Shown here: one piece after another, positions 14,101 through 52,646 of the stretch | How the letters are laid out: each line of letters starts with the position of its first letter | Position numbering within the stretch: the stretch's first letter is position 1 | Source: Bacteroidia bacterium | Lineage (GTDB): Bacteria; Bacteroidota; Bacteroidia; M30B66 | Direction: 5' to 3' | NCBI GenBank assembly: GCA_965279035.1 | Contig: OZ257142.1 | Location: 3,584,001-3,648,000, forward strand | DNA length: 64,000 bases | Notes under the pieces: generated by a model | Seen by the model: only the letters and a program-made list of their open reading frames with translations | Databases searched by the model: none | What the model was told of the DNA's origin: nothing | Translations under genes and position numbers: made by a program

Positions 14101-14670
14101 GTGAAAATTGCTCAAGAACGCTTGCTTGAATTAGGCGAAACACTCATCCGTACCAGAGGTTTCAATGCTATCAGCTATGCCGATTTGAGTAAGAAACTGC
14201 AGGTGAAAAATGCAGCTATTCACTATCATTATCCTAGCAAAGAAGATTTAGGCATTGCCATTATTCACTTCAATAGGGAAAAATTTGCTCGCTTTTGCGA
14301 ACACATGATCAAACGGGAATTCAAACCCGACGAACAAATCCGACGATACATCCGAATTTATTCCTCCAGCCTTCAGGATGAAAAAGTGTGTCTCGTTGGT
14401 TCGCTCGGCCCTGATTATGCGACTTTTGGCCCGGCCATGCAGCATGAACTCAAAATCCTTACTTCCGAAATTCTCGATTGGTTTACTCATGTCCTTGAAA
14501 AGGGAAGAAATGAGGGGATTTTCCAATTCACAACCGAACCTCAAACGCAGGCTTTGCTTATCATTACCAATCTTACTTCAGCTCTCATCTTGTCTAAAAT
14601 AATGGGACCGACTGCATTTCATCAAATCACCGATTCGGTCATGTCTTCCCTTCTAAAAACCCAACCCTAA
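14101..14670 (+). CDS. TetR/AcrR-family transcriptional regulator
   Basis: N-terminal HTH 'RGFNAISYADLSKKLQVKNAAIHYHYPSKEDL', 'CLVG' in the C-domain. Confidence 0.92.
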   Translation: MKIAQERLLELGETLIRTRGFNAISYADLSKKLQVKNAAIHYHYPSKEDLGIAIIHFNREKFARFCEHMIKREFKPDEQIRRYIRIYSSSLQDEKVCLVGSLGPDYATFGPAMQHELKILTSEILDWFTHVLEKGRNEGIFQFTTEPQTQALLIITNLTSALILSKIMGPTAFHQITDSVMSSLLKTQP

Positions 14671-14673
14671 TTT

Positions 14674-15918
14674 ATGGAACGTGTTGTCATTACTGGCACT
14701 GGCGCTATAACACCGCTAGGCAATTCTACCGAATCTTTTTTGAATAATGTGTTTGCTGGCGTTTCAGGTGCTGGTCCAATCACGCGATTTGATGCTTCTG
14801 CTTTTAAAACGCGTTTTGCTTGTGAGGTAAAAGATTTCGATCCAACTCAGTATTTCGAACGCAACGAAAGTCGCAAATACGACCGTTTCTCTTGGTATGC
14901 TGTTGCTGCTGCTGATGAAGCCTTAAAAATGGCTGGAATTTCTCGCGATAACATTGATGTTCACTGTGCTGGAGTAATCTTCGGTTCCGGAAATGGTGGC
15001 ATCGAAACCTTCGATCAACAACTCATCGAATTCGCTGCAAATCCTTCCAATCCTCGATTCAATCCCTATTTCATCCCCAAAATGCTGGTGAACATGCCTT
15101 CGGGTGTTGTTTCGATTCGTACCGGTTTTCGGGGAATTGTTTATACACCCGTTTCTGCTTGTGCAACAGGGAATACAGCCATTATGGATGCTGCTAATTA
15201 CATACGTTGGGGCAAAGCCGATGTGATGATCGCTGGAGCATGTGAAGCTCCAATTACCTACTCCGCCATTGGTGGATTTGGTGCCATGAAAGCACTTTCC
15301 ACCCGTAATGATGATCCTCAAAAAGCTTCTCGTCCATTCGATAAAGACCGCGATGGATTTGTGATGGGCGAAGGTGCCGGAGCACTTATATTAGAATCAC
15401 TTTCTCATGCCTTGGCTCGTGGAGCGAATATCTTGGGTGAAGTGGCTGGAACTGCCATGACTGCCGATGCCTATCACTTGAGTTCTGGTTTACCTGACGG
15501 TGATGGTGCTCGTCGTTGCATGCTACTCGCCCTCGAAGAAGCTGGTTTAAGTCCCGATCAGGTTGATTATATCAATGTACACGCAACCTCCACTCCAGTG
15601 GGCGATCCAGGCGAGATGAAAGCAGTTTGGAGCGCCTTTGGCGAACGAAGCAGTTTGCTCATATCTTCCACTAAATCCATGACCGGACATCTCCTAGGTG
15701 CCGCTGGTGCCGCCGAAGCAATTATCAGCTTAGGTGCAATTCAACGTCAGGCTGCTCCTCCTACCATCAACCTCGAAAACCGTGATCCGGAAATTCCTAC
15801 AGGTTTGAATATCGTTTCCGGAAAAGCAAAATCACATCCTATCCGTGTTGTATTAAGCAATACGTTTGGTTTCGGCGGACATAATTCCAGTGTTGTACTT
15901 AAAGCTTTTACCGCATGA
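14674..15918 (+). CDS. fabF: Beta-ketoacyl-ACP synthase II
   Basis: 'RVVITGTG', catalytic Cys 'SACATG', His 'HATSTP' and 'GHLLGAAG', 'SNTFGFGGHN'. Confidence 0.93.
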   Translation: MERVVITGTGAITPLGNSTESFLNNVFAGVSGAGPITRFDASAFKTRFACEVKDFDPTQYFERNESRKYDRFSWYAVAAADEALKMAGISRDNIDVHCAGVIFGSGNGGIETFDQQLIEFAANPSNPRFNPYFIPKMLVNMPSGVVSIRTGFRGIVYTPVSACATGNTAIMDAANYIRWGKADVMIAGACEAPITYSAIGGFGAMKALSTRNDDPQKASRPFDKDRDGFVMGEGAGALILESLSHALARGANILGEVAGTAMTADAYHLSSGLPDGDGARRCMLLALEEAGLSPDQVDYINVHATSTPVGDPGEMKAVWSAFGERSSLLISSTKSMTGHLLGAAGAAEAIISLGAIQRQAAPPTINLENRDPEIPTGLNIVSGKAKSHPIRVVLSNTFGFGGHNSSVVLKAFTA

Positions 15919-16364
15919 TTCATACATCCAACGAGCTGTTCGTGTACTTTAAAAGTCATATCGGAAAAAGCTATCCCAAAGACATGATCACCTTTGGATG
16001 TTGGCTGCAACCAGTAATTAAAAAAGTGGAACGGGATGAATTACATCTCGAATTTTTCATGCGTCCTGAAGAAGGAAATCCTGCCGGAACGGTGCATGGT
16101 GGCGTTTTAGCATCTATCATTGATGAAACCATCGGTGCGATGATGTATTACACGGGTGAGCCACATTTCAAATCAACTATCAACTTAAGCGTCGATTACC
16201 TCAATTCCTGCCGCCCAGGTGATGTGATATTGTGTCGTGCTCGATTAGTCAAAGCAGGTAAAACACTACTTCACGCAACTGCCGACATTATTCGGGAAGA
16301 CGATGGGAAAATAATCGCTTCCGGTAGCTCGAGTTTGATTGTAATGGTAAAATCGGCTTCGTAA
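15915..16364 (+). CDS. PaaI-family hotdog-fold thioesterase
   Basis: 'NPAGTVHGGVLASIIDE', 'TINLSVDYL'. ATGA overlap with fabF. Confidence 0.88.
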   Translation: MIHTSNELFVYFKSHIGKSYPKDMITFGCWLQPVIKKVERDELHLEFFMRPEEGNPAGTVHGGVLASIIDETIGAMMYYTGEPHFKSTINLSVDYLNSCRPGDVILCRARLVKAGKTLLHATADIIREDDGKIIASGSSSLIVMVKSAS

Positions 16365-16497
16365 TTTTTTGACTTTGAACTGAAATAAAGAAGGAAAAAG
16401 CTTTAATACATTCAAACTCTTTTGCAAAATTGAGATGCATATTAGCATATCAATATTTTAATTAAGCGAGTATTTCTAATTCGTTAATCATACAATC

Positions 16498-16534
16498 CTC
16501 CCCTCTCCTCGTGGAGAGGGGTCGGGGCTGAGGT
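16498..16534. repeat. REP-like GC-rich palindrome, copy 1
   Basis: CTCCCCTCTCC-TCGT-GGAGAGGGG-TCGGGGCTGAGGT. Confidence 0.8.
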
Positions 16535-16786
16535 CAATGCAAAGCCAGAAAAACACGAGTCCACTCCATTGCCGATATCATCCGAGAAGACGATGGAAAA
16601 TCATCGTCTCAGGCAGCTCGAGTTTGATAGTAATGGTGAAATCGGTTTCGTAATTTTTTGACTTTGAACTGAAATAAAGAAGGAAAAAGCTTTAATACAT
16701 TCAAACTCTTTTGCAAAATTGAGATGCATATTAGCATATCAATATTTTAATTAAGCGAGTATTTCTAATTCGTTAATCATACAATT

Positions 16787-16823
16787 CTCCCCTCTCCTCG
16801 AGGAGAGGGGCCGGGGGTGAGGT
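16787..16823. repeat. REP-like GC-rich palindrome, copy 2
   Basis: CTCCCCTCTCC-TCGA-GGAGAGGGG-CCGGGGGTGAGGT, containing a perfect 22-bp palindrome. Confidence 0.8.
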
Positions 16824-17057
16824 AAATGCAAAGCCAGAAAAACACGAGTCCACTCCATTGCCGATATCATCCGAGAAGACGATGGGAAAATCATCGCTTC
16901 TGGTAGCTCGAGTTTGATTGTGATGGTGAAATCGGCTTCTTGATTTTTAAGATTAAAAAACTGAAATGTAGAAGGAAAAAGCAGTTGAGCATTCTTACTT
17001 TCTTCAGCAAAATTAATATGGAGTGTTGCTTATCTGTTGAATAATTAGGCGATTATT

Positions 17058-17561
17058 TCAAATTCGAAAATGGTGAAATTCTCCCCTCTCCTCGAGGAGA
17101 GGGGCCGGGGCTGAGGTAAATCGTTCATCCAACCTAAAATCCACACTGGATAGTATACGAACTTCTTTCATATCGGGATGTTTCGGGTTTATCAAGTAAT
17201 TGAATTCTTCCGGAACAACTGCCGATGGTACAGACAAGACCAATGTTTCTGATTTCAATAACCATTCATCACCCAATTTTCGTGAGGATAATGGATGCGG
17301 GAAATGATACCAATCCTTAGGTAATTCCTGAAATTGATATATCGAGCCTAAATCAGGGATTTCAATTTGCACCATGACTAAATCGCTTGGCAACCAAACA
17401 GATGGCGTATGCACAAGCCATTCCGTTAAACATAAAGCCCGATTGGAAGCAGTATAAAGCACCGGATTTCCTCTGCTGTTCCACCTTCCACCTAACTTCT
17501 CCGCTCCTATTCCACTCAAATCACGAGAAAATTCGCGACGTGTTAAACGGAATACAATCAT
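17058..17561 (-). CDS. RES-domain toxin of a type II TA system
   Basis: 'GGRWNSRG', 'LYTASNRALCLTE', 'VPSAVVPEEFNYLINPKHPD'. The conserved R, E and S residues are present. Confidence 0.9.
   Translation of the reverse strand: MIVFRLTRREFSRDLSGIGAEKLGGRWNSRGNPVLYTASNRALCLTEWLVHTPSVWLPSDLVMVQIEIPDLGSIYQFQELPKDWYHFPHPLSSRKLGDEWLLKSETLVLSVPSAVVPEEFNYLINPKHPDMKEVRILSSVDFRLDERFTSAPAPLLEERGEFHHFRI
17081..17117. repeat. REP-like GC-rich palindrome, copy 3, inside the RES toxin 3' end
   Basis: CTCCCCTCTCC-TCGA-GGAGAGGGG-CCGGGGCTGAGGT, translated on the minus strand as TSAPAPLLEERG. Confidence 0.8.
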
Positions 17562-17986
17562 GAAACAATGCCGTATTCTAAGCGACCTAACTCGTCTTTA
17601 ATGAGTTGAATTCCCATGCTGCTATCTAATAAAGATTGCGGTGTAATTCCTCCCAAAGCAAGATTAGGCAGAGAAAGCCATTCTACCCAACGTTCATCCG
17701 AACCAAATAGTTCTTTACCATAATTACTCAACATCGTGATTTCGATAATGCGTTCCGATTGCATGGCATCAAATGCTTTTTGACCTTTTTGATAACGTTG
17801 CAGACTTCTTTCAGATAAATGAAGCACTCGTGCCCATTCTCGAAAACTAAAGTTCAATCGATTGCCTAAGCCAACAAAAAAATCGAAAGGTAATCCGCCT
17901 CGAATAAAATTAATAAGCCCATATGCCGCAGCGCTTTCAGCTACTGTATAAGAAATGGGAGTTTCGTTTATAGGATATGTTTTCAT
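17558..17986 (-). CDS. Xre/MbcA/ParS-type antitoxin (DUF2384-like)
   Basis: HTH 'LHLSERSLQRY', 'WLSLPNLALGGITP', 'ELGRLEYG'. Overlaps the RES gene by 4 nt. ATG at 17986 lies downstream of a TATCTTTG box. Confidence 0.9.
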   Translation of the reverse strand: MKTYPINETPISYTVAESAAAYGLINFIRGGLPFDFFVGLGNRLNFSFREWARVLHLSERSLQRYQKGQKAFDAMQSERIIEITMLSNYGKELFGSDERWVEWLSLPNLALGGITPQSLLDSSMGIQLIKDELGRLEYGIVS

Positions 17987-18002
17987 AATAAATATCTTTC
18001 CC

Positions 18003-18010
18003 CAAAGATA
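18003..18010 (-). promoter_or_regulatory. Bacteroidota -7 box (TATCTTTG) for the TA operon
   Basis: Perfect TAnnTTTG on the minus strand 16 nt upstream of the antitoxin ATG. TTTGAC direct repeats lie further upstream. Confidence 0.6.
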
Positions 18011-18048
18011 CATGTCTTTTTCAAAACGTCAAATGTCAAACATATTTT

Positions 18049-20017: not shown

Positions 20018-20022
20018 TGGTC

Positions 20023-20325
20023 GCACCCCCGGACTTCAGTCCGGGGATTTCTCTAATTAGCAATCCTCATCATTTTCAGTCCGAGGCTTTCTCAAATAAA
20101 TTCCAATCCCTCTAGCACCCCCGGACTTCAGTCCGGGGATTTCTCTAATTAGCAATCCTCATCATTTTCAGTCCGAGGCTTTCTCAAATAAATTCCAATC
20201 CCTCTAGCACCCCCGGACTTCAGTCCGGGGATTTTTCTAATTAGCAATCCGCATCATTTTCAGTCCGAGGCTTTCTCAAATAAATACCAATCTCTCTAGC
20301 ACCCGCGGACTTCAGTCCGTGGATT
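20023..20325. repeat. Tandem 92-bp repeat (three full units plus a fourth hairpin) built on CCCCGGAC-TTCA-GTCCGGGG
   Basis: Hairpin units start at 20023, 20115, 20207 and 20299. Intervening sequence is nearly identical between units. Confidence 0.92.
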
Positions 20326-20348
20326 CCCTTGAGAAGCATTAAACCTAA

Positions 20349-31149: not shown

Positions 31150-31639
31150 GGGTTATTTAACCCCCATAATTTTTAACATTTATTAATTTCGATGTAAGAT
31201 TTTTTAGTATTTTTGCGAATTAATAGCATGCAAAGATGGCTAAAGTCGGTTTTATTTCTAAAAAAATAACACGCAGTGAAAAAGCAATTAATCTATTGCG
31301 CTTCAAGTCATTACGCACTTTATTGCAATCTGATTTTAGACTTTTCTCACTAGACAACAATTCAACTAAACAGCATGTAACATTTGACATGTTTTCGAGC
31401 TTCTGTTTATTGAGTCCTACTATCCTTACTGTAAGAATAGTTTCTTTCATAACCTTTGAATGCAATGTTCGTTTAGTGGACTTGTTTAAAACAAGTTATA
31501 TTGAAAGATGTTACAATCACTTTTTAAGAAACAACCTGGAAAAAGTTCCAGTTTAATCAAAGCTCCTTTAATCAAGTCTTTGCTCGAAGCACTTGATTTT
31601 GGTTGCAATACACAAATAGCATTAACCAACCCTAACCCC

Positions 31640-34600
31640 ATGAAAACAAGCTCTACAACCTATAGTCCGGGCTTTACCTGTAAACCTTTCGGGTTTCTTC
31701 TGATATCCTTTCTTCTTTTAATGGGATGGTCAGCTCAAGCTCAGGTAGTAAAAACCTCAACAACTGCATCTAATTGGAGTACTGTTACATGGTCACCTGC
31801 TGGTGCTCCTGCTGCAATTGATGATGCAATTATTGCTACCAACGTAACGGTTAACCAAAACGTAACGGTAACCAATTTGACTATTAATGCGGGAAGCACC
31901 TTGACCATGTCGGGAGCTTTTACATTAACTGTTACTGGTGCTTTAAACGTAAATGGAACCTTAGCAGGAGGAGCTGGTACTGGGCTTATTGCTGTTACTG
32001 GCAATACGATCTTATCAGGTACTGGAGCTATCAACCTTGCAGCTGGAAGTTTCACTTCATCAGGAACGACTACGCTCAATGGAACTTCTACAATTACAGA
32101 TAACAATAACACCGGAACAAACACTTTCACAGGCTTGCTCACTGTAAATACTGGAACAAACTTCTCTACAGCAAACAACTCTGCGTATGTTTTTAGTGGA
32201 GGTATTTCAAATGCTGGAACTTTCAGTAAAACTGGAACAGGTGCTGTTACAATGAATAATACCATCACTGTTGGTGGAACATCAGCAATTACTATTGCAG
32301 GTGCTGTAACAATGAATGGAGCTACTACAATAAACAATACAGCTACAACTACTTTCTCAGGTGCTGTAACAGCAAGTTCAACCCTTACTTTGAACAGTGC
32401 TGGAGCGACTAATTTCTCAACAACACTTGCTTCAACTGGATTAGTGACCCTTTCTGGTTTAGGAATAACAACCGTTACAGGTACTTCAACTTTTACTGGT
32501 GGCGCAACAACTTCTACTAGCACATCAACAGTATTAACTGGAAATGTGACAGTTGGGTCAGCTCAAACGTTAACGAATAACGGAACAGTTAATATTGCTG
32601 GTACATTAAACGGAGCAGCAGGGACTTCTATTTGGGTGAATGCGGCAAATTCAACTTTGATTTATTCGAATGCGGCTGCTCCAATGGCAACCGGAACATT
32701 AACAGCAACAGCTTCTGGCAATACCGTTAATTACAGTACCGGAGCACAAACAATCAAAGGAACTAGCTACGATATTCTAACTTTAGGTGGAGCATCAGTT
32801 ACCAAAACTTTAAATGGAATTACTTCAGTTGCTACAACTTTAACTATTCCGGCAACTATCACTTTATCAAATTCAACATTTGCTTTAACTGTTCCAACAA
32901 TTACTGTAAATGGAATTTTATCTCTTGGCTCTGGAAGCTTCACAGCCTCTGGAGTGATAACAAATCCAGGATCAATAACAATTGGAGCTGGAAACTTCAC
33001 TGCTTCTAGCACAATTTCAAATAGCGGAACATTCAGTGATGCTAGCGCTACAGGAACAAATATTATTACTGGTTTATTCACCAATACAGGAACATTTTCT
33101 ACAACGAATAATCCGGCATTTGAATTCCAAGGTGGAATAACAAACAATGGTACAATGACAGCTACCGGAACAGGTACCTATTCATTCACTACCAATGCTC
33201 AAACAATCAGCGGAACAAATCCAATAACATTTGGAGGCGGATTTACTGTTACAGCCCCAGGTTCAGTCATCTTTGCTGGTGCTGGCGCAGTTACAATCAC
33301 AGGTGCAACAACAGCAAATGGAACGATCACTCTCAATAGCGGTTGTTCAATTACACATACTGGTAATGTGACTATTGGAAACGGAATCACATACAATGAT
33401 AACGGAAACGCAACCATTGCTGGTACAATGAATGGAACCAATGCTGGCTCAACTTTTTTGATTGGAGCTGGAATAACATTCTCCTATGCCAATGCTACTG
33501 CACCAATGGTTACTGGATCAGTTAACGCTTCGGCTGCAGGAACAACTTTTAATTATTCGGGTGCAAATCAAAGTATCAGTGCTGGAACTTATAACAACCT
33601 TGTTTTAAGTGGATCAGGTACTAAAACTCTAGTTGGAAACGTAACAGTGCTTAGTGCTCTCACAGTTCCAGCAACATTTACTCTTGCTAATAGCACTTTT
33701 TCTTTAACTGTTCCTAGTATTACCGTAAACGGAACTTTAACTCTTGGTTCTGGAAGTTTTACTTCAACAGGTGCTATTACAAACACTGGAACTATAACAA
33801 TTAGCACTGGTAATTTCACAGCTTCAAGTACTATTTCAAATAGCGGAACTTTTAGTGATGTGAATGGTCCTGGGACTAATATCATAACTGGTCTCTTTAC
33901 TAATACAGGTATTTTCACAACAAGCAATAATCCACCGTTTGAATTCCAAGGAGGGATCACAAACAATGGTACAATGACAGCTACCGGAACGGGTACCTAT
34001 TCATTTACTACCAATGCTCAAACAATCAGTGGAACAAATCCAATCACATTTGGTGGTGGATTTACGGTTACTGCTCCAGGTTCAGTCATTTTTGCTGGTG
34101 CTGGTAATGTTACCATCACAGGTGTAACAACAGTTAATGGTACAATCACGCTCAATAGCGGTTGTTCAATCACACATACTGGTGCTGTTACTATTGGCAA
34201 CGGAATTACATACAACGACAATGGGAATGCAACCATTGCAGGAACGTTAAACGGAACAAATGCGGGATCAACTTTCTTAATCGGTCCGGGATTAACATTC
34301 TCTTATTCCAATGCAACAGCTCCAATGGCTATCGGATTTGTTGATGCTTCAGCAGCTGGAACAACCTTTAATTATTCAGGGGCTGCTCAAAATATCAGCG
34401 CTGGAACATACAATAACCTTGTTTTAAGTGGATCAGGTGTCAAAACTTTGGTAGGAAACGTAACTGTTCTTAGTGCTTTAACAGTACCTGCAACGTTTAC
34501 ACTTGCAAACAGTACATTTTCATTAACTGTTCCAAGTATAACAGTTAATGGAACATTATCACTTGGAGCAGGAAGTTTCACTTCGAATGGTGCCATTACA

Positions 34601-37600
34601 AACACAGGTGCTATTACAATTGGTGCTGGTAACTTCACAGCTTCTAGCACAATTAGTAATAGCGGCACATTCAGTGATGCAGCCGCCGCTGGAACCAATA
34701 TTATTACTGGTCTCTTTACCAATACAGGAACATTTTCAAATACCAATAATCCTCCATTCGAATTCCAAGGAGGAATCACAAACAATGGTACAATGACAGC
34801 TACCGGAACAGGTAACTATTCATTCACTACCAATGCTCAAACCATTAGCGGTACAAATCCAATCACATTTGGTGGTGGATTTACAGTTACTGCTCCAGGT
34901 TCAGTCATTTTTGCTGGTGCTGGTGCGGTTACCATTACTGGAGCAACAACTGTTAATGGAACGATCACGCTAAACAGCGGTTGTTCAATCACTCATACTG
35001 GTAATGTGACAATTGGTAATGGAATCACATACAATGACAATGGGAATGCAACCATTGCAGGAACCTTAAACGGAACCAATGCAGGTTCAACCTTCTTAAT
35101 TGGTCCGGGATTAACATTCTCCTATTCCAATGCAACAGCTCCAATGGCTATCGGATTTGTTGATGCTTCGGCTGCTGGAACAACCTTTAATTATTCAGGG
35201 GCTGCACAAAATATCAGTGCTGGAACATATAACAACCTTGTTTTAAGTGGATCAGCTACTAAAACGCTTATAGGTAATATAACTGTAAACAGCGCTTTTA
35301 TAATCCCAGTTGGTATTACTTTCAATAGTGCTGGCTTTGATTTTACTTGTAATAGTACCGTTTCTGTATTAGGTACATATAACGACAATGCACTTGCAGG
35401 TACAAATACAATTGTTGGCTTACTTACCAATACTGGAACTCTTAACAATTCAGGAAATTCACCATTTGAACTCCGTAACGGCTTAACAAACAATGGTACC
35501 TTCACTCCTGGAACTGGGGCATTCTTGTTTTCTACAAACAATCAAATTATTTCTGGAACGAATGCAATCACTTTTGGTGGTTCCGTTTCTATTGGAGATA
35601 ATGTTCAGCTGACCAATAACAGTACATTATTAACGATAAATGGTGTATTAACTGGTTTATCGGCAACAGCATTTTTTAAAGCGGGTACAAGTTCCGTTTT
35701 AACATATGGTAATAATACATCACCAATGTCGGGTGGTGTTTTGGATGCTACGGCTTCTCCCAATACGTTTGTTTATTCATCTACAAGTGGGACTCAAAGT
35801 ATTAAAGAAACAACATACCATCATTTGAGTTTTACAGGAGGTGCGACTCACTCTGTCCCTAATATTACTGTCAATGGGAATTTTACTCGCACTACATCAC
35901 CTATTTCTTCTCCCAACTTTACTTGGACTTTTGAAACATCCAATGCTTCAACTATCAACTTAAATGGATCAGGTATTTCTCTTCCTAATATTGTGATAAA
36001 CAAAGCAGGAGGTTCAATTACATTCGTTCCATCAGCAGCTGCTCAAAGTAATACACTACTCAGTTTAACTGTAGGAGCTGGTTCATTTATTTTAGGAAAT
36101 GCTTTTGCAACCACACTAACCATAACTGAAAATCTATCTGGATTAGGAACATTGGATATGTCTACTATCGCAGGACATGTTCTCAACCTTGGTGGTCAAA
36201 CAAATTCTATTCAAACGTTCTTAACTCCTGCAGGTTCAGGTAGTGCGACCGTTAATTATACTCGTGTAAACGATCAAACAATTTTTGCGAGTGTAAACTA
36301 CCGGAATTTAGGAATTACCGGAAATGGTGATAAAACATTGAATGGTCCTGTATTCGTCGATGGAACATTAACAATGTCGGCTAATACTGGTCGAATTGTT
36401 TTAGGTTCATCTAATTTGAAGTTAAAATCTACTTCAACCATTGTTCCTACTGGTTTAGGCTTTAGTGGAACAAAAATGATCGTTACTGATGGAGCAGGTT
36501 CACTTTTGAAAGAAGCTTCAACTGTTCCTCAAATTTCTGGTTTCATTTTCCCAATTGGATCTAACGGAAATTACAATCCATTTCAAATAACAACATTAAC
36601 AGGTACTGTAACACCTATAGGATATGTCTCTGTTAGAGCAGTTCCTCTTCAACAACCAAATGTCCCTTATTATAACAACTCCCTCATAAAATATTGGGAT
36701 GTTCAAACAGCAAACATTGCTATTACTTCTGCCAGCATATCATACTTATATGTTAATAACGCTTCTGAAGTAATTGGCTCCAATGCACTTTATGTTCCTC
36801 GAGTTTGGAACGGAACTTCTTTAGTCGCTCCAGCAGGTGCTTCAGGTGGTGCTACAAACCCAATGACTAGTGTTGGAACGACTTTCTTAGCTGGACAATG
36901 GACTGGTGTTGACCCAACAATTCGTACAACTTTATACTCTTATCAATCGGGCGATTGGGCAAACCTCAACACGTGGACAACCGATCCATCTGGTTCAACA
37001 CTCGTTACTTCAATTATTCCAGGAGCTGGAGACCAAGTAGTAATCCTAAATGGTCGTACTGTTACCACAGCTATTGCAAGAACAGTTGGTTCAGTATTTA
37101 TCGAATCAGGTGCTACACTAGATTTGGGAACAACAACTGGTCATAATTTAGGAACTGTTGATGGACAAGGATTGCTTCGATTATCTTCTGTTAACTATCC
37201 TGGTGGTTCATTTACTCCATTTGTTTCAAGTACAGGTGGAACAATTGAATACTATGACCTTCCTGCTGGAGCGAATATTTTACCTAGTCTTCCTGCAACA
37301 GTTAATACTTACAATAATTTAATAGTAAGTAACTCTACTGCTAGTTCTTATTCTTTGAATCAAAATTCAACCATTATCATCAATGGGAATCTTTCACTTC
37401 TCAAATCAGGAAGTGGAACAACAACTTACAATTTAGGAAGTGCTGCAGGTAGTTTCACAACAACCGTTTCTAAAAATGTTACCATTGCACCTGCTTGTAC
37501 TTTAGGTGTGAGCAGCTATAATGCCGCACATACGTTAAATATCTATGGAAACTTAGATGTTTCGGGTAGAATCGATTTACAAAATGGTGCTCCTTATACA

Positions 37601-40600
37601 GTTCCAGTAAATGGTAGAGCAACGTTGAACTTTTTTGGAAGTGTTACCAATACTACTGCTACGTTTAATGCATCATCGCAGGCTGATCTTTACGATGTTA
37701 CTACTACCAAAAACGAAGGATTCGAATTATTAGTTAGCGCTTCACCTTCTTCAACAGTTGGTTTTAATGGTGGTGGAATTACGATTATTCCAAATTCTGG
37801 AATACTCCATTTAGGTCCGAACATCACAATTCCTTCTTTAGGAAATGTTGGAAATTACGATTTAGGTGGTCCTGGTGTTCTTCCAGTATTTTGGATTGAT
37901 GGCGCAAACGTTACCGATGGCGGAGTTAGTGGTGCCATTGTACCTTACGGTACTATGAAAATAACTGCTGGTAGTCTTACTTGTGTGAATGGTCAAGGTG
38001 CTGTTGTTCTTCGTGAATCTGGTTTATTACAGATCGATGGTGGTACTGTTCAAATGAAAATTTTCAGAACTTCTACTACAGCTGTTACACATCGTGGTTC
38101 ATTTGTAATGACTGGTGGATCATTGAATATCACTGGTAATAATGGTTCTGAAAGTTCATTTTATGCAAGCTTTACTTTGCCTTATCCAGAAAATGTATTT
38201 CAAATGAGTGGTGGTACAATTACCATTACCCGAACTGTTGGAGGAACTATCACTCCACGTGGAGGAATTTTAATTGCTTCTAATGCTCAGAATTACCTTG
38301 TAACTGGAGGAAAAGTGATTGTCAATGTATCTGGAAATCAGTTTTTCGATATTACATCTACTGCTCCATTTTATGATATGGATATTTCCAAAACAGTTGC
38401 TGGTACTGGAAATGTTCAGTTAAACCCAATAAGTTGGTCTTATGATGGTTCTGCAGGTAATACTGCAGTTGTTCCTGCTCAACCACTCCGCATCCTTAAC
38501 AATCTAAACTTCAATACTGCAATAGCAGTTGGATTCCTTGGAAATAACAATAACATTGAAGTTGGCGGTAATTTAACCGTTAATAATATTACAACACTTT
38601 CCACTGGAACAGGCTTATTGGTTTTCAATGGGAATGCTGCTCAAACTTTCACAATGAGTGGTATTATTGGTGTTCCGGGACTTGGTGGGCTTACAGTAAG
38701 TAAAGGCTCTGCTACTTCCTTATTAATTGCAGGAACAATTACCAATATCCCATTCTCAGGTGGATTGAATCTATTAAGTGGAACACTTGCCGACGGAGGA
38801 AAAGGGCTATTATTTGGTGGAAATGTGATTAATAATTCCTTGCATATTGGCGCTGGTCGCATTGTGCTAAACGGAACTTCAGCTCAAACAATTAGTAGTA
38901 ACGGAACTGGAGCATTCCAAAATCTTGAAATAGCTAGTACAGCTGGAGCAATTGGCTCTGTTCAAGTATCTGCAACAAACACGCTTCGTGTTAATGGAAA
39001 TATCACGCTTTCAACTGATAGAAAATTAAGCATTGGTATCTATAAATTAATCCTAACAGGAACATCTCAAATGTTATCGACTGCAGGATCATTTAGTATC
39101 AATCGCTTTATTCAAACAGATGGTTTCCTTTCTGACGGTGGTATTGTTAAAACGTTCTCTAATACAACTGCTGTTGTTTTCCCTTTCGGAACTGGAACAA
39201 ACTACACACCTGCAACAATCCAATTTAGTTCTGCTCCAACAACTTGGGGTACTTTGGACGTACGCCCTGTAACTGCTCGCCAGTTATATGTAACCGATCC
39301 TAATACATTTATCTATCATTGGAAAGTTCGTCAAACAGGATTTACTGGTGTTCCAGCTAACTCCATAAACTTGACTTTCAATTATGGAAATCTAACAGAT
39401 AATGCAGCATATATTCCTGCATTCTACGATTATCAAGCTATCGCTTACACACCAATTAATGATGTAACGAAAGTGGATGAAGTAACTAACAACATCTATT
39501 TTACAGGTGTAAGTTATTTCAACGGTGATTTTACTGCAGGTATTCCAGCAGCATTTGGTGTAGTAGTTCCTTACTACAGTCGCGCCAATGGATCTTGGAA
39601 CACTCCTTCAACTTGGTCGAATAATGCTATTTTGAAACATGCTGGAGCTGCATCTTTAACAATCCCTAGTTCGAATTCTCCAGTATTTATTGGAGATGGT
39701 ACAACCTATTTCCACACTGTAACAGTTCCTTCAAACAATACAGTTTCTGGTTCTCTTATCGTGGATGCCGGTTCTATTTTGGATTTAGGATCAACAACAG
39801 GAAATAACTTTGGTGCCTTACCATATTCAACAGCTGGTGGTGCTGGTAGGATTCGTATTTCTTCTGCAACTCCAACTGCCGAATTCCCTGCAGGTGACTT
39901 TGGAATTTTCTTTACTGTAGATGGTGGTACAACAGAATATTACTCAGGAGCAACAGCTTTTACGATTCCAATAATAAGTGCTGCTCCTACGAATATGCAA
40001 ATTCGTTCTTATCGGAACTTAATTCTTAATCCTTCGGTAAGTAGTTCGGTAACTCTACCTAATAGAGATTTAGAAGTATATGAAAATGTAACAATTAATG
40101 GTAATGCCGCTGGAATTGCAGCTTTGAATGATGTTTCATCGAAAGCGCTTACCATACACGGTAACCTTGATATTACTAGTGGTAATTTCCGTTTTGGTTC
40201 AGCTTTTTCTCAAAGTGCTTTGATTGAAGGAAATTTAACGGTTAGCACGAATGGTACTATGTCCGTTTTAAATGCTGGCTCTGCTGCTCATAGCATCAAT
40301 CTACTCGGTAATTTAACAAACAATGGTACTGTAAATCTGAATCAAGCGAGTGATGTAAATATCAGCTTTACAGGAATAAACAGTCGATCTATTACTGGAA
40401 CCAATGCTGCTGCAACTACTTCCTTAAGTCAAATTACAATCAATAAAGGGACTTCAAATGCAATTCTCGTAAATGTTGATGTCCTTGGTACCTTAATTAC
40501 GCCAACCAACAATTGGTTAAACTTGGTAAATGGTACGTTCAGATTATCGAAAGCGGCAACTATTACTTTAACTGATGCTGCTGGTGCAGATTTCATTATT

Positions 40601-43600
40601 CCAAATACAACTTCACTTTCATTAAATCACATTAGTGCGGTAGTGAATGCTTGTATGGCAAACGACAATGCCTCCGATTTTATCTTAGCCGGTAAACTTG
40701 AAATTTTGAATGGTACCTTGAACATTGGAAATACGTTATCCAACAATGTTCATAATGACTTGGAGTATTCAGCATCCGACGTTCCTGTTATTCTTGTTCA
40801 AGGAACAGGTGTATTGAATGTAAACGGACAAATTCGTCGAAGTGTTAGTGTACTTCTTGGTTCACTCGATTATACTCAGAAAAATAATAGTACTGTTCAC
40901 GTATTTGGTAAAAACCAAGAAGCTGCTTCTTCTTTTAACCTCAACCGTGCAAAATTTGAAATATTAAATCCGGGTAGTCAATTTACAATGCAAGACAATG
41001 CATTGCTCATTATCGACCGTAACGGACTTGCAAGTGGAACTTTCGGAGATTTCTATTTGAATCCAGCTTCTTTTGCAGTAACAGGTGGTGAGGTTCGTTT
41101 TGGAACATCAGATACTCCTCCATCAGCAACAGAAAGTACATTCTTATTAAATACTACGACTCCATTTTGGAATTTAACAGTTGATGGAACTACAACCAAT
41201 AAAACAGTTCGTTTAGCAACCGATGGAATTACTGTTCGAAGTAACTTATCTATTTTGGGTGGTTCTGTATTCGATGCCAATGGGTTAAATGTATCTATCG
41301 CTGGTGATATGACTAACATGAATTCTTCAGCTGCTGCTGGTGTTTCTTTAGGAGGATATCGCCCAGGTTCTTTATCTCAAGTAACTACGATAAATGGTTC
41401 TACAGCTGTTCAACAATTAACTGGAAATACAGGTAACCTAACCAATTTTGCAAATCTGGTAATTGATAATTCATTTGTAGGAGGTTCGCTTAATCTGCAA
41501 TCGAACACTGCAATTCGAGTGAATTCTAATTTAAGTATCCTCACTGGAAACTTAAATACAGCAGGTAATTTAGCTACTGTCCTTGGTAACGTTATCAACA
41601 ATAGAACGCATACATCAAGTGGAGCTGGATATTTAGTGATGGGAGGAAGCTCCAACCAAACAATCTCAGGAAACGGTTCTGGTGTATTTGGAAACCTTCG
41701 TATGAGTAATGCCGCAGGTATTGACTTGGATAATCCAATTACAATCAACGGAGATTTAAATTTTGTTGCTGGTTTATTCTACATCAATAACAATCAACTC
41801 ACATTAGGACTTACTTCTACTGTGACAGGAACCTTGAATGCTAGTTCAATGATTCGTATGAATGGTGTTGTGAGTGATGGTGGATTGAAAAAATTGTATC
41901 CAGCTTCAGCACATGATTTCACATTCCCTGTTGGTGTAACACTTAAATATACTCCAGCGAGAATCAATGTAACGTCCAATGGTGTTGCAGGAAGTGTAAC
42001 AATCAAATTGGGTAACATTAAGCATCCTGCTACTACAGATCCTGCTGATAAAGAATTGATGTATTACTGGAGTACTGCATCAACAGGATTTGATGCTTCA
42101 ACCCTTGTAAATCATACATACAATTACATAAATTCTGATGCAATCAATGGAGTAGAAGCAAATTACAGAACTGGTCGATATGTAAACAATGTTTGGACTC
42201 CACAATTTGGAATTGCAGGAACAGTGAATGCTGCAGCTAATACAATGACGCTTACTGGAGTTAATTACTTTAATGGTGATTATACAGCAGGTGAACAAAC
42301 CGAATTCGACCAATTACTTGTTTTCTATAGCCGCAATGCAACATTAGGTGGAAACTGGAATGATGTTAATTCTTGGTCTACCGATGCTATACTAACACAT
42401 GCTGGAGCTGCTGCTGCAACGCCACCAACATTTAACTCTGTTGTTATTGCTGCTGGTCATACCATTAATGCAACAGCAAACAATACTTCAGCTCCTACAG
42501 CTATAATCGATGGAACCTTAGATTTAAGCAACTTCATTGGAAATAACTTGGGAACAGTTACAGGTACTGGTACAATTCGCTTGGCTCCAACAGGATTAAA
42601 TCAATACATTTTCCCTGCTGGAACATTTGCGACATTTACATCTGCTGGCGGTGGTACAATCGAATACTACAATACTTCAGGAACGGCAACACTTCCTTCT
42701 CAAGGTATTTATAATCACCTCGTATTCTCAGGTGCAAGTACAAAAGCATTGTTTAATACTGATATCGTTGTGAATGGTAATTTAACCATCAATGCAGGTA
42801 CAGTTACAAATCCAAGCAATCGAATACTTTCTTTAAAAGGTAATTTGATTAATTCATCTGGATTAACAGCACTTCAAACAGGAACAACTGGTTCACTTCA
42901 ATTAACTGGTGGAGTTCAAAGCATCACTGGTGCAACATCTGTTGGTAAACTCATTTTGAACGGTGCTGGTTTTAAAACACTAAATAGCTCTTTTACGGTT
43001 ACCAATCAATTAACTTACACGAGTGGTATTATTCAAACTGGAGCCAATCAATTAATATTAGCACTTGGTGCATTAGGAACTGGAGCGTCCGCAAGTAGTT
43101 ATGTTTACGGAAATCTTCAGAAATACATTTCTGGTGGAACGGTTTCACGAAACTTCGAAGTTGGTGATGCCACTACCTATGCTCCTGTTAATTTCCAATT
43201 TACCGGAACAACAAATTCTGGAGGATCAATCACCGTTTCAACTGCTTCTGGCGATCATCCTGCTACAGCAACATCTGGAATTGATGGTTCTAAATCGGTA
43301 AATCGTAATTGGAGTATTTCTAATTCCGGTGTAGGAGGATTTACAGCGGCAAGTGTAACATTCAATTTTGTTAGTGGAGATCTTGATCCGGCTGTGAACA
43401 CTGGAAACCTATCAGCTGCTAAATACACAGCATCTTCATGGACTCAACAAACAGTTGGTACACGCACTAGTACTTCACTCCAAATAACAGGATTAACTTC
43501 TGTATCATTAGGAATCTCTAATCAATTTGAACTTGCAGAACCGTTTGCGGCTGGTATTACATGGACTGGTTTGGTTAATGTTGACTGGAATAATCCTGGA

Positions 43601-46755: not shown

Positions 46756-47655
46756 TCAAGCTCTAGGATGAAATTCGGTAATCACTTGGCGGAGATATTC
46801 TCGATCGAGATGGGTATAAATCTCGGTAGTAGTTATCGACTCATGTCCCAACATTTCTTGTACAGCGCGCAAATCGGCTCCGCCCTCAACCAAAGACGTG
46901 GCAAAGGAATGACGGAATGTATGAGGACTAATCTTCTTCTTCAACCCAATCTTTTTTGCTAAATCTTTAATCATCAAAAAAACCATTACACGCGTTAAAC
47001 GTTTGCCTCTTCGGTTTAAAAAAACAATGTCCTCCTCACCCACTTTTACAGGAACATGAATTCGAACTTGTCCTAAATAATCTTCTAATCGTTTCCGAAC
47101 TTCCGAGCCTGCAGGGATAATGCGTTCTTTATTTCCTTTCCCAGTTACTTTTATAAATTCGGCTTGGAGATGCAAATCAGAAATTTTCAAATTGACCAAT
47201 TCAGAAACGCGTAAACCACAACTATACAAGGTTTCTAAAATTGCCCGATTTCGTTCTCCTTCGGCTTTGCTTAAGTCGATGGCTGCTATGAGTGCATCAA
47301 TATCTTGAATATCTAGTGTATCGGGAAGTTTGCGCCCTAATTTAGGAGAATCGAGTTGGTCGCAGGGATCGGTTTGGATGAGGTTTTCGAGGAGCAAAAA
47401 TTTATAAAATGCCTTCAATCCTGAAATCATACGTGCCTGAGAACGTGGTTGCATACCTAATTCGGCCACCCATTTGACTAAACCTTTCAGATGTTCGGGT
47501 TCCACATTTTCGGGTGAAACCGATAATCCATGAACCTCAAAAAATTGCCATAATTTCTCAACATCTCGTTCATACGCTTCTACCGAATTTGGCGAAAGCG
47601 AACGCTCAAGCTTGAGAAATGCTTTGAAGCCTTTTATCGAAGAGGACCAGTCCAT
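46756..47655 (-). CDS. xerD: Site-specific tyrosine recombinase XerD
   Basis: 'LERSLSPNSVEAY', 'LYSCGLRVSEL', 'GKGNKER', 'SPHTFRHSFAT', 'LGHESITTTEIYTH'. Confidence 0.9.
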   Translation of the reverse strand: MDWSSSIKGFKAFLKLERSLSPNSVEAYERDVEKLWQFFEVHGLSVSPENVEPEHLKGLVKWVAELGMQPRSQARMISGLKAFYKFLLLENLIQTDPCDQLDSPKLGRKLPDTLDIQDIDALIAAIDLSKAEGERNRAILETLYSCGLRVSELVNLKISDLHLQAEFIKVTGKGNKERIIPAGSEVRKRLEDYLGQVRIHVPVKVGEEDIVFLNRRGKRLTRVMVFLMIKDLAKKIGLKKKISPHTFRHSFATSLVEGGADLRAVQEMLGHESITTTEIYTHLDREYLRQVITEFHPRA

Positions 47656-50742: not shown

Positions 50743-51609
50743 TTAAGAAGTTGTATTTCTGTTGATATTTCCTGAATTCCAGTTATATATGGTCATAGAA
50801 GGATTTTGATTTCTTTGGTTATTCACTTTTTCATATTCAGTAGGTGTTAGCATGCCTAATTCACTGTGTGGTCGTTCATTATTGTAAAGATCCATTGCCT
50901 TTTTTGCCATCTCATTGAGATTGCTTTTGGTTAGATTCCATTGAAGTAAGTACTCGTTTTTTATGATGCCATTTATTCGTTCAACATAAGCATTTTCTTG
51001 TGCTATTGACGCCATACTGATTCGTATTCCTTTGCTTTTTAGCATCTCTTTATGCATCGTGCTGATGTATTGTGAACCTCGATCAGAATGAAAAATGCAA
51101 TTATCTAAATCGTGCCCTTTCCTTATTTTAAAGGCTTTTCTAAGTGCTTTGATATTTTCCTCCGCTCTTAAGCTTGGAGACAGATGTAGAGCTAATAAGC
51201 GCCTTGAATAGACATCTTCAATACAGATTCCATAATGATGTGCATGCTCTACATCGAGATAAAATATGTCAGATTGCCAAAGCATATTCACATCATTAAT
51301 CGTTATTCCATTTATCAGATTGTCATATATCTCAACGCGTTGAGACCAAGTCGTTCGTATTGGATTTCTCTTCTTCTTAACCTTATATCCGTACCTAAAA
51401 CCAATCCGCTCAAAAGCATCCCTACCTATTGGATGGCGTTGTGGATCCATAAAATAGATCTTTCTACAACCCATTTGGCGATGATTATGACGCACTTTTG
51501 ATATGTAACGAACGATACTTTCTTCCACCTTTAATTGGTCGCGACTTCGTCTTTCACTCTTCCAAAGTGCTTGCTTACTAAGGCCTGCCACTTCTAACAG
51601 ACTCTTCAT
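50743..51609 (-). CDS. IS3-family transposase OrfB (DDE integrase core)
   Basis: 'WQSDIFY', 'DVYSR', 'FHSDRGSQY', 'ENAYVERINGIIKNE', 'YNNERPHSELG'. Confidence 0.92.
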   Translation of the reverse strand: MKSLLEVAGLSKQALWKSERRSRDQLKVEESIVRYISKVRHNHRQMGCRKIYFMDPQRHPIGRDAFERIGFRYGYKVKKKRNPIRTTWSQRVEIYDNLINGITINDVNMLWQSDIFYLDVEHAHHYGICIEDVYSRRLLALHLSPSLRAEENIKALRKAFKIRKGHDLDNCIFHSDRGSQYISTMHKEMLKSKGIRISMASIAQENAYVERINGIIKNEYLLQWNLTKSNLNEMAKKAMDLYNNERPHSELGMLTPTEYEKVNNQRNQNPSMTIYNWNSGNINRNTTS

Positions 51610-51679: not shown

Positions 51680-52646
51680 TTGAATTAGTAGTTTAGTCAA
51701 TATTGATTTCTTTAATAATTTAGGGCAATCAAAAGATACAATATGAATGCACAATTTAAAAGCCTTTCATTATTTGATTTTCAGGCTCAGTTTCCAAATG
51801 AAGAAAGTTGCTACGCATATTTGGCAAATTTGAAATGGTCAAATGGTTATTCCTGTCGACGATGTAAGAACAAAAACTTTTGTAAAGGCGTTAGTCTTTA
51901 CGAGCGGCAATGCACTGTTTGCAGGCATTTAGAATCGCCAACATCTGGAACACTGTTTCACAAATGTAAATTTTCAATTCTGAAGGCTTTTTATATTGTT
52001 TTCTATGTATCAACTAGCAAGAAAGGAATAAGCAGTACTGAGCTAAGTAGAAAGCTTGATTTGGGGCAGAAGACTTGTTGGTTGTTTAAACAAAAGGTTA
52101 TGAATGCAATGAAAAGCAGTAAGAAAAATCCAATGAAAGGGAAAGTTGATGTTGATGAAACATATGTTGGAGGACAAGATGATAAATCCATTGGAAGAAA
52201 TGAAGGAAAGAAAAAAGTTGTAGTTCTAGCCATTGAAAAGAAATCAAGAGGTGTATCAAGATTCTATGGAAAAGTTGTGGCGACAGCTAACAGAAAGAAT
52301 TTGAGTGAATTTATGAGGGATCATATTGCTCCCAATGCGAATGTTAGAACTGATAAATGGGCTGGATATAAAGGCTTGGAGTCTGAATTTCCGAACCTAA
52401 TTCAAGAAAAGTCTGAGAAGAAAGGAAGGAATTTTAAAGAACTCCATCGAACAATAATGATGTTTAAAGCTTGGCTTAGAGGTGTCCATCATTCTGTTAG
52501 ACATTTACAGCCTTATATTGATGAGTATACATATCGATTTAACAGGCATAAAATGAATGAAGGAATCTTCGAAAATCTAATGATGAGAATGGTAAAAGCA
52601 GAACCATATACTTATAAAATGATTATTGCTTAAATGACTAATTCAA
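51680..52646 (+). mobile_element. IS1595-family insertion sequence (967 bp)
   Basis: IRs TTGAATTAGTAGTTTAGTCAATA / TATTGCTTAAATGACTAATTCAA (19/23 match). 8-bp target duplication TTTTTTTA at 51672-51679 and 52647-52654. Confidence 0.9.
51743..52633 (+). CDS. IS1595-family transposase
   Basis: Zn ribbon (CRRC...CTVC), 'KKGISSTELSR', 'VDVDETYVGG', 'VRTD', 'YIDEYTYRFNR'. Confidence 0.93.
   Translation: MNAQFKSLSLFDFQAQFPNEESCYAYLANLKWSNGYSCRRCKNKNFCKGVSLYERQCTVCRHLESPTSGTLFHKCKFSILKAFYIVFYVSTSKKGISSTELSRKLDLGQKTCWLFKQKVMNAMKSSKKNPMKGKVDVDETYVGGQDDKSIGRNEGKKKVVVLAIEKKSRGVSRFYGKVVATANRKNLSEFMRDHIAPNANVRTDKWAGYKGLESEFPNLIQEKSEKKGRNFKELHRTIMMFKAWLRGVHHSVRHLQPYIDEYTYRFNRHKMNEGIFENLMMRMVKAEPYTYKMIIA

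Follow-up and report, generated by a model that had tools for sequence, protein, structure and literature searches.

Three copies of the 3' end of a thioesterase gene, each closed by a palindromic repeat, are stacked head to tail between two convergent operons in the window (the whole 64,000-nt stretch of DNA analysed here). The array most likely represents the scar of ordinary recombination between related strains, and no new gene-capture machine. The favoured account, to which we assign a probability of roughly 0.62, is an old duplication joined at a hairpin and reworked by out-of-register homologous recombination between lineages. Read in this way, the array would be a well-preserved fossil of exchange among lineages about 87–93% alike, with a dead part and a live part of a 38-codon tail serving as a clock.

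Layout and integrity of the array

The thioesterase belongs to a run of genes on the forward strand. A TetR regulator (14101–14670; ORF with Pfam TetR_N) lies upstream in the same run, followed by a FabF-type ketoacyl synthase (14674–15918, forward; ORF with Pfam ketoacyl-synt) and the PaaI-type (hotdog) thioesterase of 149 aa (15915–16364, forward; Pfam 4HBT, E 7e-16). Relatives of the thioesterase are 92–95% identical, and the records of the close ones are Flavobacteriales or Bacteroidota metagenome-assembled genomes (MAGs). On the reverse strand, a RES toxin gene (17058–17561; Pfam RES) and an Xre/MbcA antitoxin gene (17558–18013; Pfam Xre_MbcA_ParS_C) form a toxin–antitoxin pair that points towards the array, convergent with the thioesterase operon.

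The array consists of three forward-oriented, head-to-tail units with a period of 289/294 nt, each made up of 38 gene-end codons, roughly 130 nt of spacer and the repeat. Unit 1 (16251–16364) is formed by the final 38 codons of the thioesterase itself and is the sole translated end. It is followed by spacer A (16365–16496), of which all 132 nt are identical to 16654–16785, and by repeat end 1 (16497–16537), a 9-bp hairpin (16500–16521) with a G-rich arm. Unit 2 opens with ten apparently long-dead codons (16541–16570; five non-synonymous changes), continues with the partly decayed tail of copy 2 (16571–16653) and the second copy of spacer A (16654–16785), and closes with repeat end 2 (16786–16826), which has one difference from repeat 3. 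Unit 3 begins with the same ten dead codons as copy 2 (16830–16859). Its tail (16860–16943) comprises 27 sense codons, with nine synonymous and no non-synonymous changes, and a TGA stop; spacer B (16944–17080) differs from spacer A at 41 of 133 aligned sites, and repeat end 3 (17081–17120) occupies the position of the single repeat in a related locus, L001. A hairpin of 9 bp followed by the G-rich arm forms in all folds of the repeats; the spacer folds are unremarkable (z −0.7 and −0.2).

The initial annotation of this DNA was accurate in its description of these parts. A recount agrees with its coordinates and codon counts for copies 1–3, with the nine synonymous third positions plus TAA to TGA that separate copy 3 from the gene (16281–16364), with the nine synonymous changes, two Ala-to-Val codons and 1-nt deletion of copy 2, and with the identity of the ten upstream codons in copies 2 and 3. 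Every unit is indeed closed by a palindrome: three of 22 nt were located (16500–16521, 16789–16810 and 17083–17104), and two motif scans of the 64-kb window found the motif at those three places only. No integrase or insertion sequence had been noticed nearby, and the nearest integrase-family and transposase genes are 30–35 kb off. A tyrosine recombinase, presumably XerD, is encoded at 46756–47655, and an rve-domain transposase (50743–51609) adjoins an IS1595-family transposase (51743–52633). No Rfam family matched within the window. A terminator/promoter scan found no terminator, and four promoter-like sites against 2.1 expected. Other repetitive features of the window include tandem 92-nt units right after the stop of a nucleoid-associated protein gene (20020–20330; about 3.3 copies, 85–99% alike), each with a GC-rich palindrome of another family and no Rfam match, and a 4752-aa protein (31508–45766) with three 819-nt internal repeats 71–88% alike.

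Repeat 3 replaces the natural last codons and stop of the convergent RES gene. Because the repeat removed the natural stop, the RES protein has 167 aa instead of 151, the natural length found in 10 of 13 members of the RES cluster. One other member, encoded on a contig of 1139 nt, shares the 167-aa form of the window and ends in the peptide that repeat 3 and spacer B encode. A record from the same source, likewise of 1139 nt, carries an intact thioesterase end; if both records are one contig, as suggested by their equal lengths only, at most one spare unit fits. The RES form of L001 has 156 aa.

That the array is not a strain chimera is confirmed by sequencing depth. In run X3, the flanks have depths of 748 and 700, the unique pieces (the two junctions, copy 2 and copy 3) 617, 638, 621 and 646, and the shared pieces 1298 and 1295, with 0 differing letters throughout. 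Run X5 is noisier and similar (unique pieces 498–721, shared 900, flanks 643 and 508). The three units are stoichiometric, 1:1:1, in X3 and X5. The pieces from which these depths derive are contigs, not reads, and no single listed piece covers the entire array. Both runs may be the window's own source, and they therefore provide a test of the assembly, not independent sightings. One contig of 4,200,666 nt carries both window proteins that were looked up.

Two ages within the spare gene ends

The spare ends display two ages. The copies had been described as differing almost only at silent sites. This is correct for the 28 codons then chosen, and incorrect for the ten codons upstream, which belong to the tail by homology and contain five non-synonymous changes. 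Counted across the full 37 sense codons, copy 3 differs by 5 non-synonymous and 13 synonymous changes (P 0.005–0.018), and across codons 11–37 alone by 0 and 9 (P 0.0002–0.0006), under a conservative null in which mutations may strike any site of a dead copy and the live gene contributes silent ones. The non-synonymous deficit over 37 codons is present but far weaker than that for codons 11–37. The spacers, 31% diverged, provide a clock, which presumes that spacers A and B diverged in place. By this measure 4.0–4.3 non-synonymous changes are expected in codons 1–10 and five are seen, against 11.6–12.3 expected and none seen in codons 11–37 (P about 6e-6). All five lie inside an 8-codon span (P 0.007). 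Given in-place divergence of the spacers, the 5' part of copy 3 would have died at about the time when the spacers separated, and codons 11–37 would have been under selection until recently; no changes against about 12 expected therefore point to a stretch that was recently part of a working allele. The dead codons alter Gly115, which is kept in 12 of 13 homologues and is Arg in none. A working paralogue was considered as the source of the ten upstream codons and rejected: their residues occur in 0 of 13 homologues and 0 of 8 further cluster members.

As the array warns, a gene fragment with a low dN/dS is not necessarily expressed. Three-frame translation of the unit 1/2 junction places an in-frame stop four codons upstream of the dead codons of copy 3 and finds no ATG start, so copy 3 is not translated on its own. 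What it spells is the gene's own C-terminus. The phrase 'alternative thioesterase 3' ends' must thus be dropped, the identical peptide offering neither an alternative C-terminus nor an alternative protein. Copy 2 is intermediate in decay, with two amino-acid changes and a deletion. Its first eight codons follow copy 3 up to 16594, and its last codons and stop follow the gene. Between them (16595–16646) lie seven private changes within 52 nt, absent from both gene and copy 3, and the earlier view of copy 2 as a two-parent mosaic fails on these. Units 2 and 3 share 59 identical nt. Differences are patchy, with 5 of 39 sites in the repeat, 7 of 52 in copy 2 and 0 of about 200 between, for patch boundaries set after looking. 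An ATG at 16537 stands right after repeat 1, and the copy-2 deletion brings the tail end into its frame (38 codons); this frame is probably due to chance, as the same frame stops early in copy 3.

Relatives of the locus place these tails among living alleles. Two collection scans yielded four loci, whose proteins are 95% (L001), 93% (L002 and L004) and 72% (L003) identical to the window thioesterase. L002 and L004 have the same sequence where compared, and the allele comparison covers two distinct close DNA alleles and one distant. L002, L003 and L004 have a short empty gap between both stops. In L001 the spacer is longer, at about 510 nt; it ends in one repeat at the repeat-3 place and contains no spare tail. 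The first 54 nt of spacer B are 81% like this spacer behind the intact L001 gene. A different, AT-rich palindromic repeat lies within the longer spacer (L001 4780–4830). Unit number differs between lineages, a comparison that the initial annotation had proposed: the site is empty in L002 and L004, holds one repeat without a tail in L001 and carries the array in the window, which gives zero, one or three repeats among relatives at this one locus. Run X1 contributes an empty site, a weak hint, as X1 and X2 hold <10% of the words. A contig of X2 joins 17076 to 16783, with 69 letters on the short side, 34 ambiguous, and a depth of 4.3. This joint, on a single low-depth metagenome contig placed at 85% likeness, would place a spacer-B-like stretch, the repeat and the first of the dead codons in an arrangement unlike that of the window.

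The search for the tails in related genomes was partly successful. Five of the ten copy-3 variant states occur in intact L001 or L002, the other five being absent from the close alleles; at five of the ten sites the gene itself, not copy 3, departs from the relatives. The last 60 nt of copy 3 have four differences from L001 and six from its own gene. No allele matched copy 3 or copy 2 in full, with 7 and 13 differences per 84 nt from the two close alleles. The proposal that the tails came from functional alleles is accordingly retained for codons 11–37 of copy 3, and given up for the first ten codons, which are long dead. A DNA search of 24 family genomes (incomplete, one per species) found the tail once each in G001, G002 and G003, and no array; the junction motif was found at 0 of 204 loci. 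In about 5.5 kb of flanking genes, with 806 variable sites, the ancestry of window, L001 and L004 is clumped (permutation p 2e-4, two tests), as expected if the lineages recombine.

The repeat family and the origin of the array

Judged by its likeness to other copies, the window palindrome is a solo end of a DUF559-nuclease cassette family. The window repeats have 2–4 differences in 40 nt from family members. Of 400 genomes in the class to which G001 belongs, 71 contain the exact repeat pattern and none a reversed control. The initial annotation had suggested looking for a DUF559 nuclease gene linked to the palindrome, and at the level of the family such a link was found. At L007, a DUF559 domain lies between two inverted copies, in frame inside the leucyl-tRNA synthetase gene (leuS). 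Among the matches listed, 156 usable sites lie outside the window; a DUF559-like ORF is present within 900 nt at 15 of them, an inverted partner within 1.2 kb at 26 and a direct copy within 1.2 kb at 27. A DUF559 match is present in 212 of the 400 genomes. The 2x2 table, from which the unpublished genomes G190 and G115 of the 400-genome tallies are omitted, has DUF559 in 66 of 71 repeat-positive and 144 of 327 other genomes (p 2e-15, ignoring kinship and genome size); no other result depends on G190 or G115. An in-frame leuS cassette with the same repeat is seen in four family genomes (L007, L050, L051 and L064), and many of the top DUF559 matches in the class lie in open frames of >1000 aa. 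Neither the tie between repeat and DUF559 nor the in-frame leuS cassettes were found in the papers searched; a literature search covering few subscription journals returned no paper describing this family.

In the window itself there are three solo ends in one orientation, and no inverted pair enclosing DUF559. A tblastn search with one query found no DUF559 remnant in the window or the L001 spacer, and none was found in the incomplete genomes G001 and G002. A single Y1_Tnp query, which distant RAYTs can escape, found no Y1 transposase remnant in the window and matched 3 of 163 repeat loci, two of them overlapping. REP/RAYT systems feature a GTAG- or CGTC-type tetranucleotide 5' of the palindrome; it is absent before all three window hairpins. 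The term 'REP' used earlier is loose: a palindromic repeat does close the units, but it is a DUF559-cassette end. At L057 (G006:C61), a Y1 (IS200-like/RAYT) transposase stands beside a cluster of the repeat and other palindromes, in a region that includes an N run.

The tail join lies 4–7 nt past the repeat arm. Read with repeat 1, it has a 5-nt match to the gene at 16248–16252 and a short duplication; read with repeat 2, it has a 2-nt match and one extra base. Repeats 1 and 2, whose flanks are identical, differ at 5 of 39 sites; the repeat has thus changed as a patch, by exchange or by mutation.

An undescribed, repeat-delimited capture process had been proposed, and the wider family does not bear it out. 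Among the matches listed there were 162 distinct sites outside the window, of which six were dropped for short flanks; at the remaining 156, in 144 loci, a gene tail recopied behind the repeat was never found, which would put the rate below about 2% per site. ORF ends near repeats have a downstream copy in 6 of 227 cases. By inspection, five of these are repeat DNA in likely spurious ORFs and one is a retroelement template, which leaves no true case; control loci without the strict repeat gave 0 of 117, and the test recovered the window's own array. Tandem copies of non-coding flanks starting at the repeat end are present at L008, L057, L059, L064 and L115. Duplication at the repeats is thus not rare, whereas gene-end duplication is. 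The flanking genes are recombinant mosaics too, and ordinary homologous recombination therefore suffices. At L119 (G127:C82), an Lcl_C/Fib_succ_major-like ORF has a second copy of its last 176 nt lying 800 nt downstream, with differences at adenines of the downstream copy (by eye) and a repeat copy in between, which is likely a diversity-generating retroelement. For the array, such a retroelement was rejected: of the ten differences between gene and copy 3, one is at an A of copy 3 and four at an A of the gene.

The proposed course of events has two stages. (i) In stage 1, a solo DUF559-type repeat end would have come to lie in the gap that separates the RES gene from the thioesterase stop. 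(ii) A single illegitimate joining event, a few bases beyond the repeat end, would then have duplicated the preceding ~290 nt head to tail, a block made of the last 38 codons, spacer and repeat. This first join would be compatible with a nuclease cut as well as with template switching at the hairpin. (iii) In stage 2, which is partly shown, related lineages would swap DNA over the entire region by homologous recombination. (iv) Out-of-register pairing would align the dead tail with the live gene end of the other lineage, and this live end with its spacer would be left parked behind the repeat as copy 3. (v) Further unequal exchange would add a unit, copy 2 with the second spacer A. The ten codons by the join would keep decaying because they are seldom replaced. 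The array itself, the two ages, the variation among lineages, the mosaic flanks and the family of the repeat are established by the data; the order of the events, their dependence on RecA and the cause of the first join we infer. At least three exchanges within 600 nt are required, two of them at repeat edges, which may point to something active there. The longest perfect match between gene and copy 3 is about 20 nt (by eye), and identity of some 20 nt is short for RecA. The array leaves the protein unchanged throughout and is therefore probably neutral; if it acts at all, it would do so through mRNA 3' ends where the two operons converge.

Other origins have to be weighed against this two-stage scar. 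A DUF559 nuclease from elsewhere in the genome might cut its cognate repeat end, after which repair or strand transfer would repeatedly recopy or capture the adjacent gene end and the repeat would drive the stacking, a more specific form of the capture idea in the initial annotation. Such an origin is unlikely, and several observations nonetheless speak for it: all three units end at a repeat terminus, one of the two join readings has the 5-nt match, the family flanks DUF559 in frame inside leuS, the sites (among the matches listed) include 15 near DUF559-like ORFs and 27 with direct copies, the genome association is strong when kinship and genome size are ignored, and further repeat copies appear in deep runs (loose ends). 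It is opposed by the lack of a recopied gene tail at the 156 other sites among the matches listed, by the six ORF ends with copies, none a comparable case, by the missing remnant in the window and L001 spacer and in the incomplete G001 and G002, and by the alternative join reading with its 2-nt match only. A bolder extension, about as unlikely, holds that DUF559 (Vsr-like) and the hairpin repeat form an undescribed mobile system, whose solo ends stay cut sites that pull in foreign homologous DNA out of register. If this were true, the array would have logged one allele capture after another, and such repeats would drive gene-end exchange locally in genomes across Bacteroidota.

It is improbable that everything happened in a single lineage, with gene conversion from the lineage's own gene occasionally renewing the 3' part of an old duplicate, unequal crossing over amplifying it later and no foreign allele involved. 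Exchange within the array does occur, as the identity of spacer A in units 1 and 2 and of 59 nt in units 2 and 3 attests; the gene is the one to depart from its relatives at five of ten sites, and the amino-acid deficit over 37 codons is modest. Own-gene conversion would give likeness, yet copy 3 differs at ten sites without amino-acid change, is followed by a spacer 31% different, and the end of spacer B stands beside a different RES allele elsewhere. Integration of an element into the gene's 3' end, with replacement of the host end and deletion of cargo between repeats, twice, would yield the outcome seen in icd/icdC, a displaced and mostly synonymous 3' end according to the available portion of PMC13626634, and would suit the fairly sharp live/dead boundary at codon 10/11. 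This e14-like course is decidedly improbable, given that no cargo or integrase lies between or beside the units, which hold only 130-nt spacers, that no match was found in viral contigs (one exact degenerate pattern), phages or plasmids, and that copies 2 and 3 have different breakpoints. An assembly chimera of co-occurring strains could appeal to the fact that the data are contigs, none of those listed covering the array. In X3, however, the unique pieces are at flank depth and the shared pieces at double that depth without a difference, the junction pieces are present, and the contig spans 4.2 Mb, so this prospect is very faint.

Comparison with known systems

In insertion-duplication, or homology-facilitated illegitimate recombination, foreign DNA is gained via one homologous and one illegitimate or out-of-register join. 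The array is alike in that a spare gene end is left. It differs in gaining no new gene, the 'insert' consisting of tail, spacer and repeat. A literature search covering few subscription journals found no paper describing a case of unequal recombination with transferred gene fragments. Tandem duplications at REP palindromes were reportedly described by Shyamala et al. in 1990. Microhomology-joined tandem duplications, which expand by unequal recombination and offer a precedent for the proposed origin, resemble the array in their head-to-tail units and in a short-homology join at a palindromic repeat. In the accessible part of PMC1428787, REP sequences lie at 4 of 28 junctions and are judged not preferred, which counts against a special role of palindromes; REP clusters are cited as recombination hot spots in the part of PMC11708052 at hand. 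In contrast to these duplications, the array involves only 290 nt, was kept until its spacers were 31% diverged and has units from different alleles.

The icd/icdC pair of E. coli (e14) is a related paradigm. As the available text of PMC13626634 has it, a displaced 3' gene end with mainly synonymous differences is able to recombine back into the gene. The array differs in having no prophage, integrase or cargo, and in its two spare ends, each with a long-dead 5' part, within hairpin-closed units.

A likeness in form to the window repeat itself is offered by the BoxC/PIT/TMECO repeats of E. coli. These share a C-rich block, a short loop, a G-rich block and a second G-rich block, are dispersed and lie at loci that vary between relatives, according to the accessible portion of PMC4666352; the same portion reports higher variability around BoxC-type repeats by a mechanism called unclear. 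The three-block layout, a hairpin plus a third purine-rich block, is present in the window repeats. The TMECO consensus (Holder et al. 2015) has no match among them at ≤4 substitutions, and only repeat 2 matches with 5. In that text of PMC4666352, every TMECO is intergenic and no tie to mobile elements was found; the family of the window repeat, by contrast, also flanks DUF559 in frame inside genes. If a DUF559 nuclease cuts the repeat ends, it would provide a mechanism for the kind of instability known from BoxC-like repeats.
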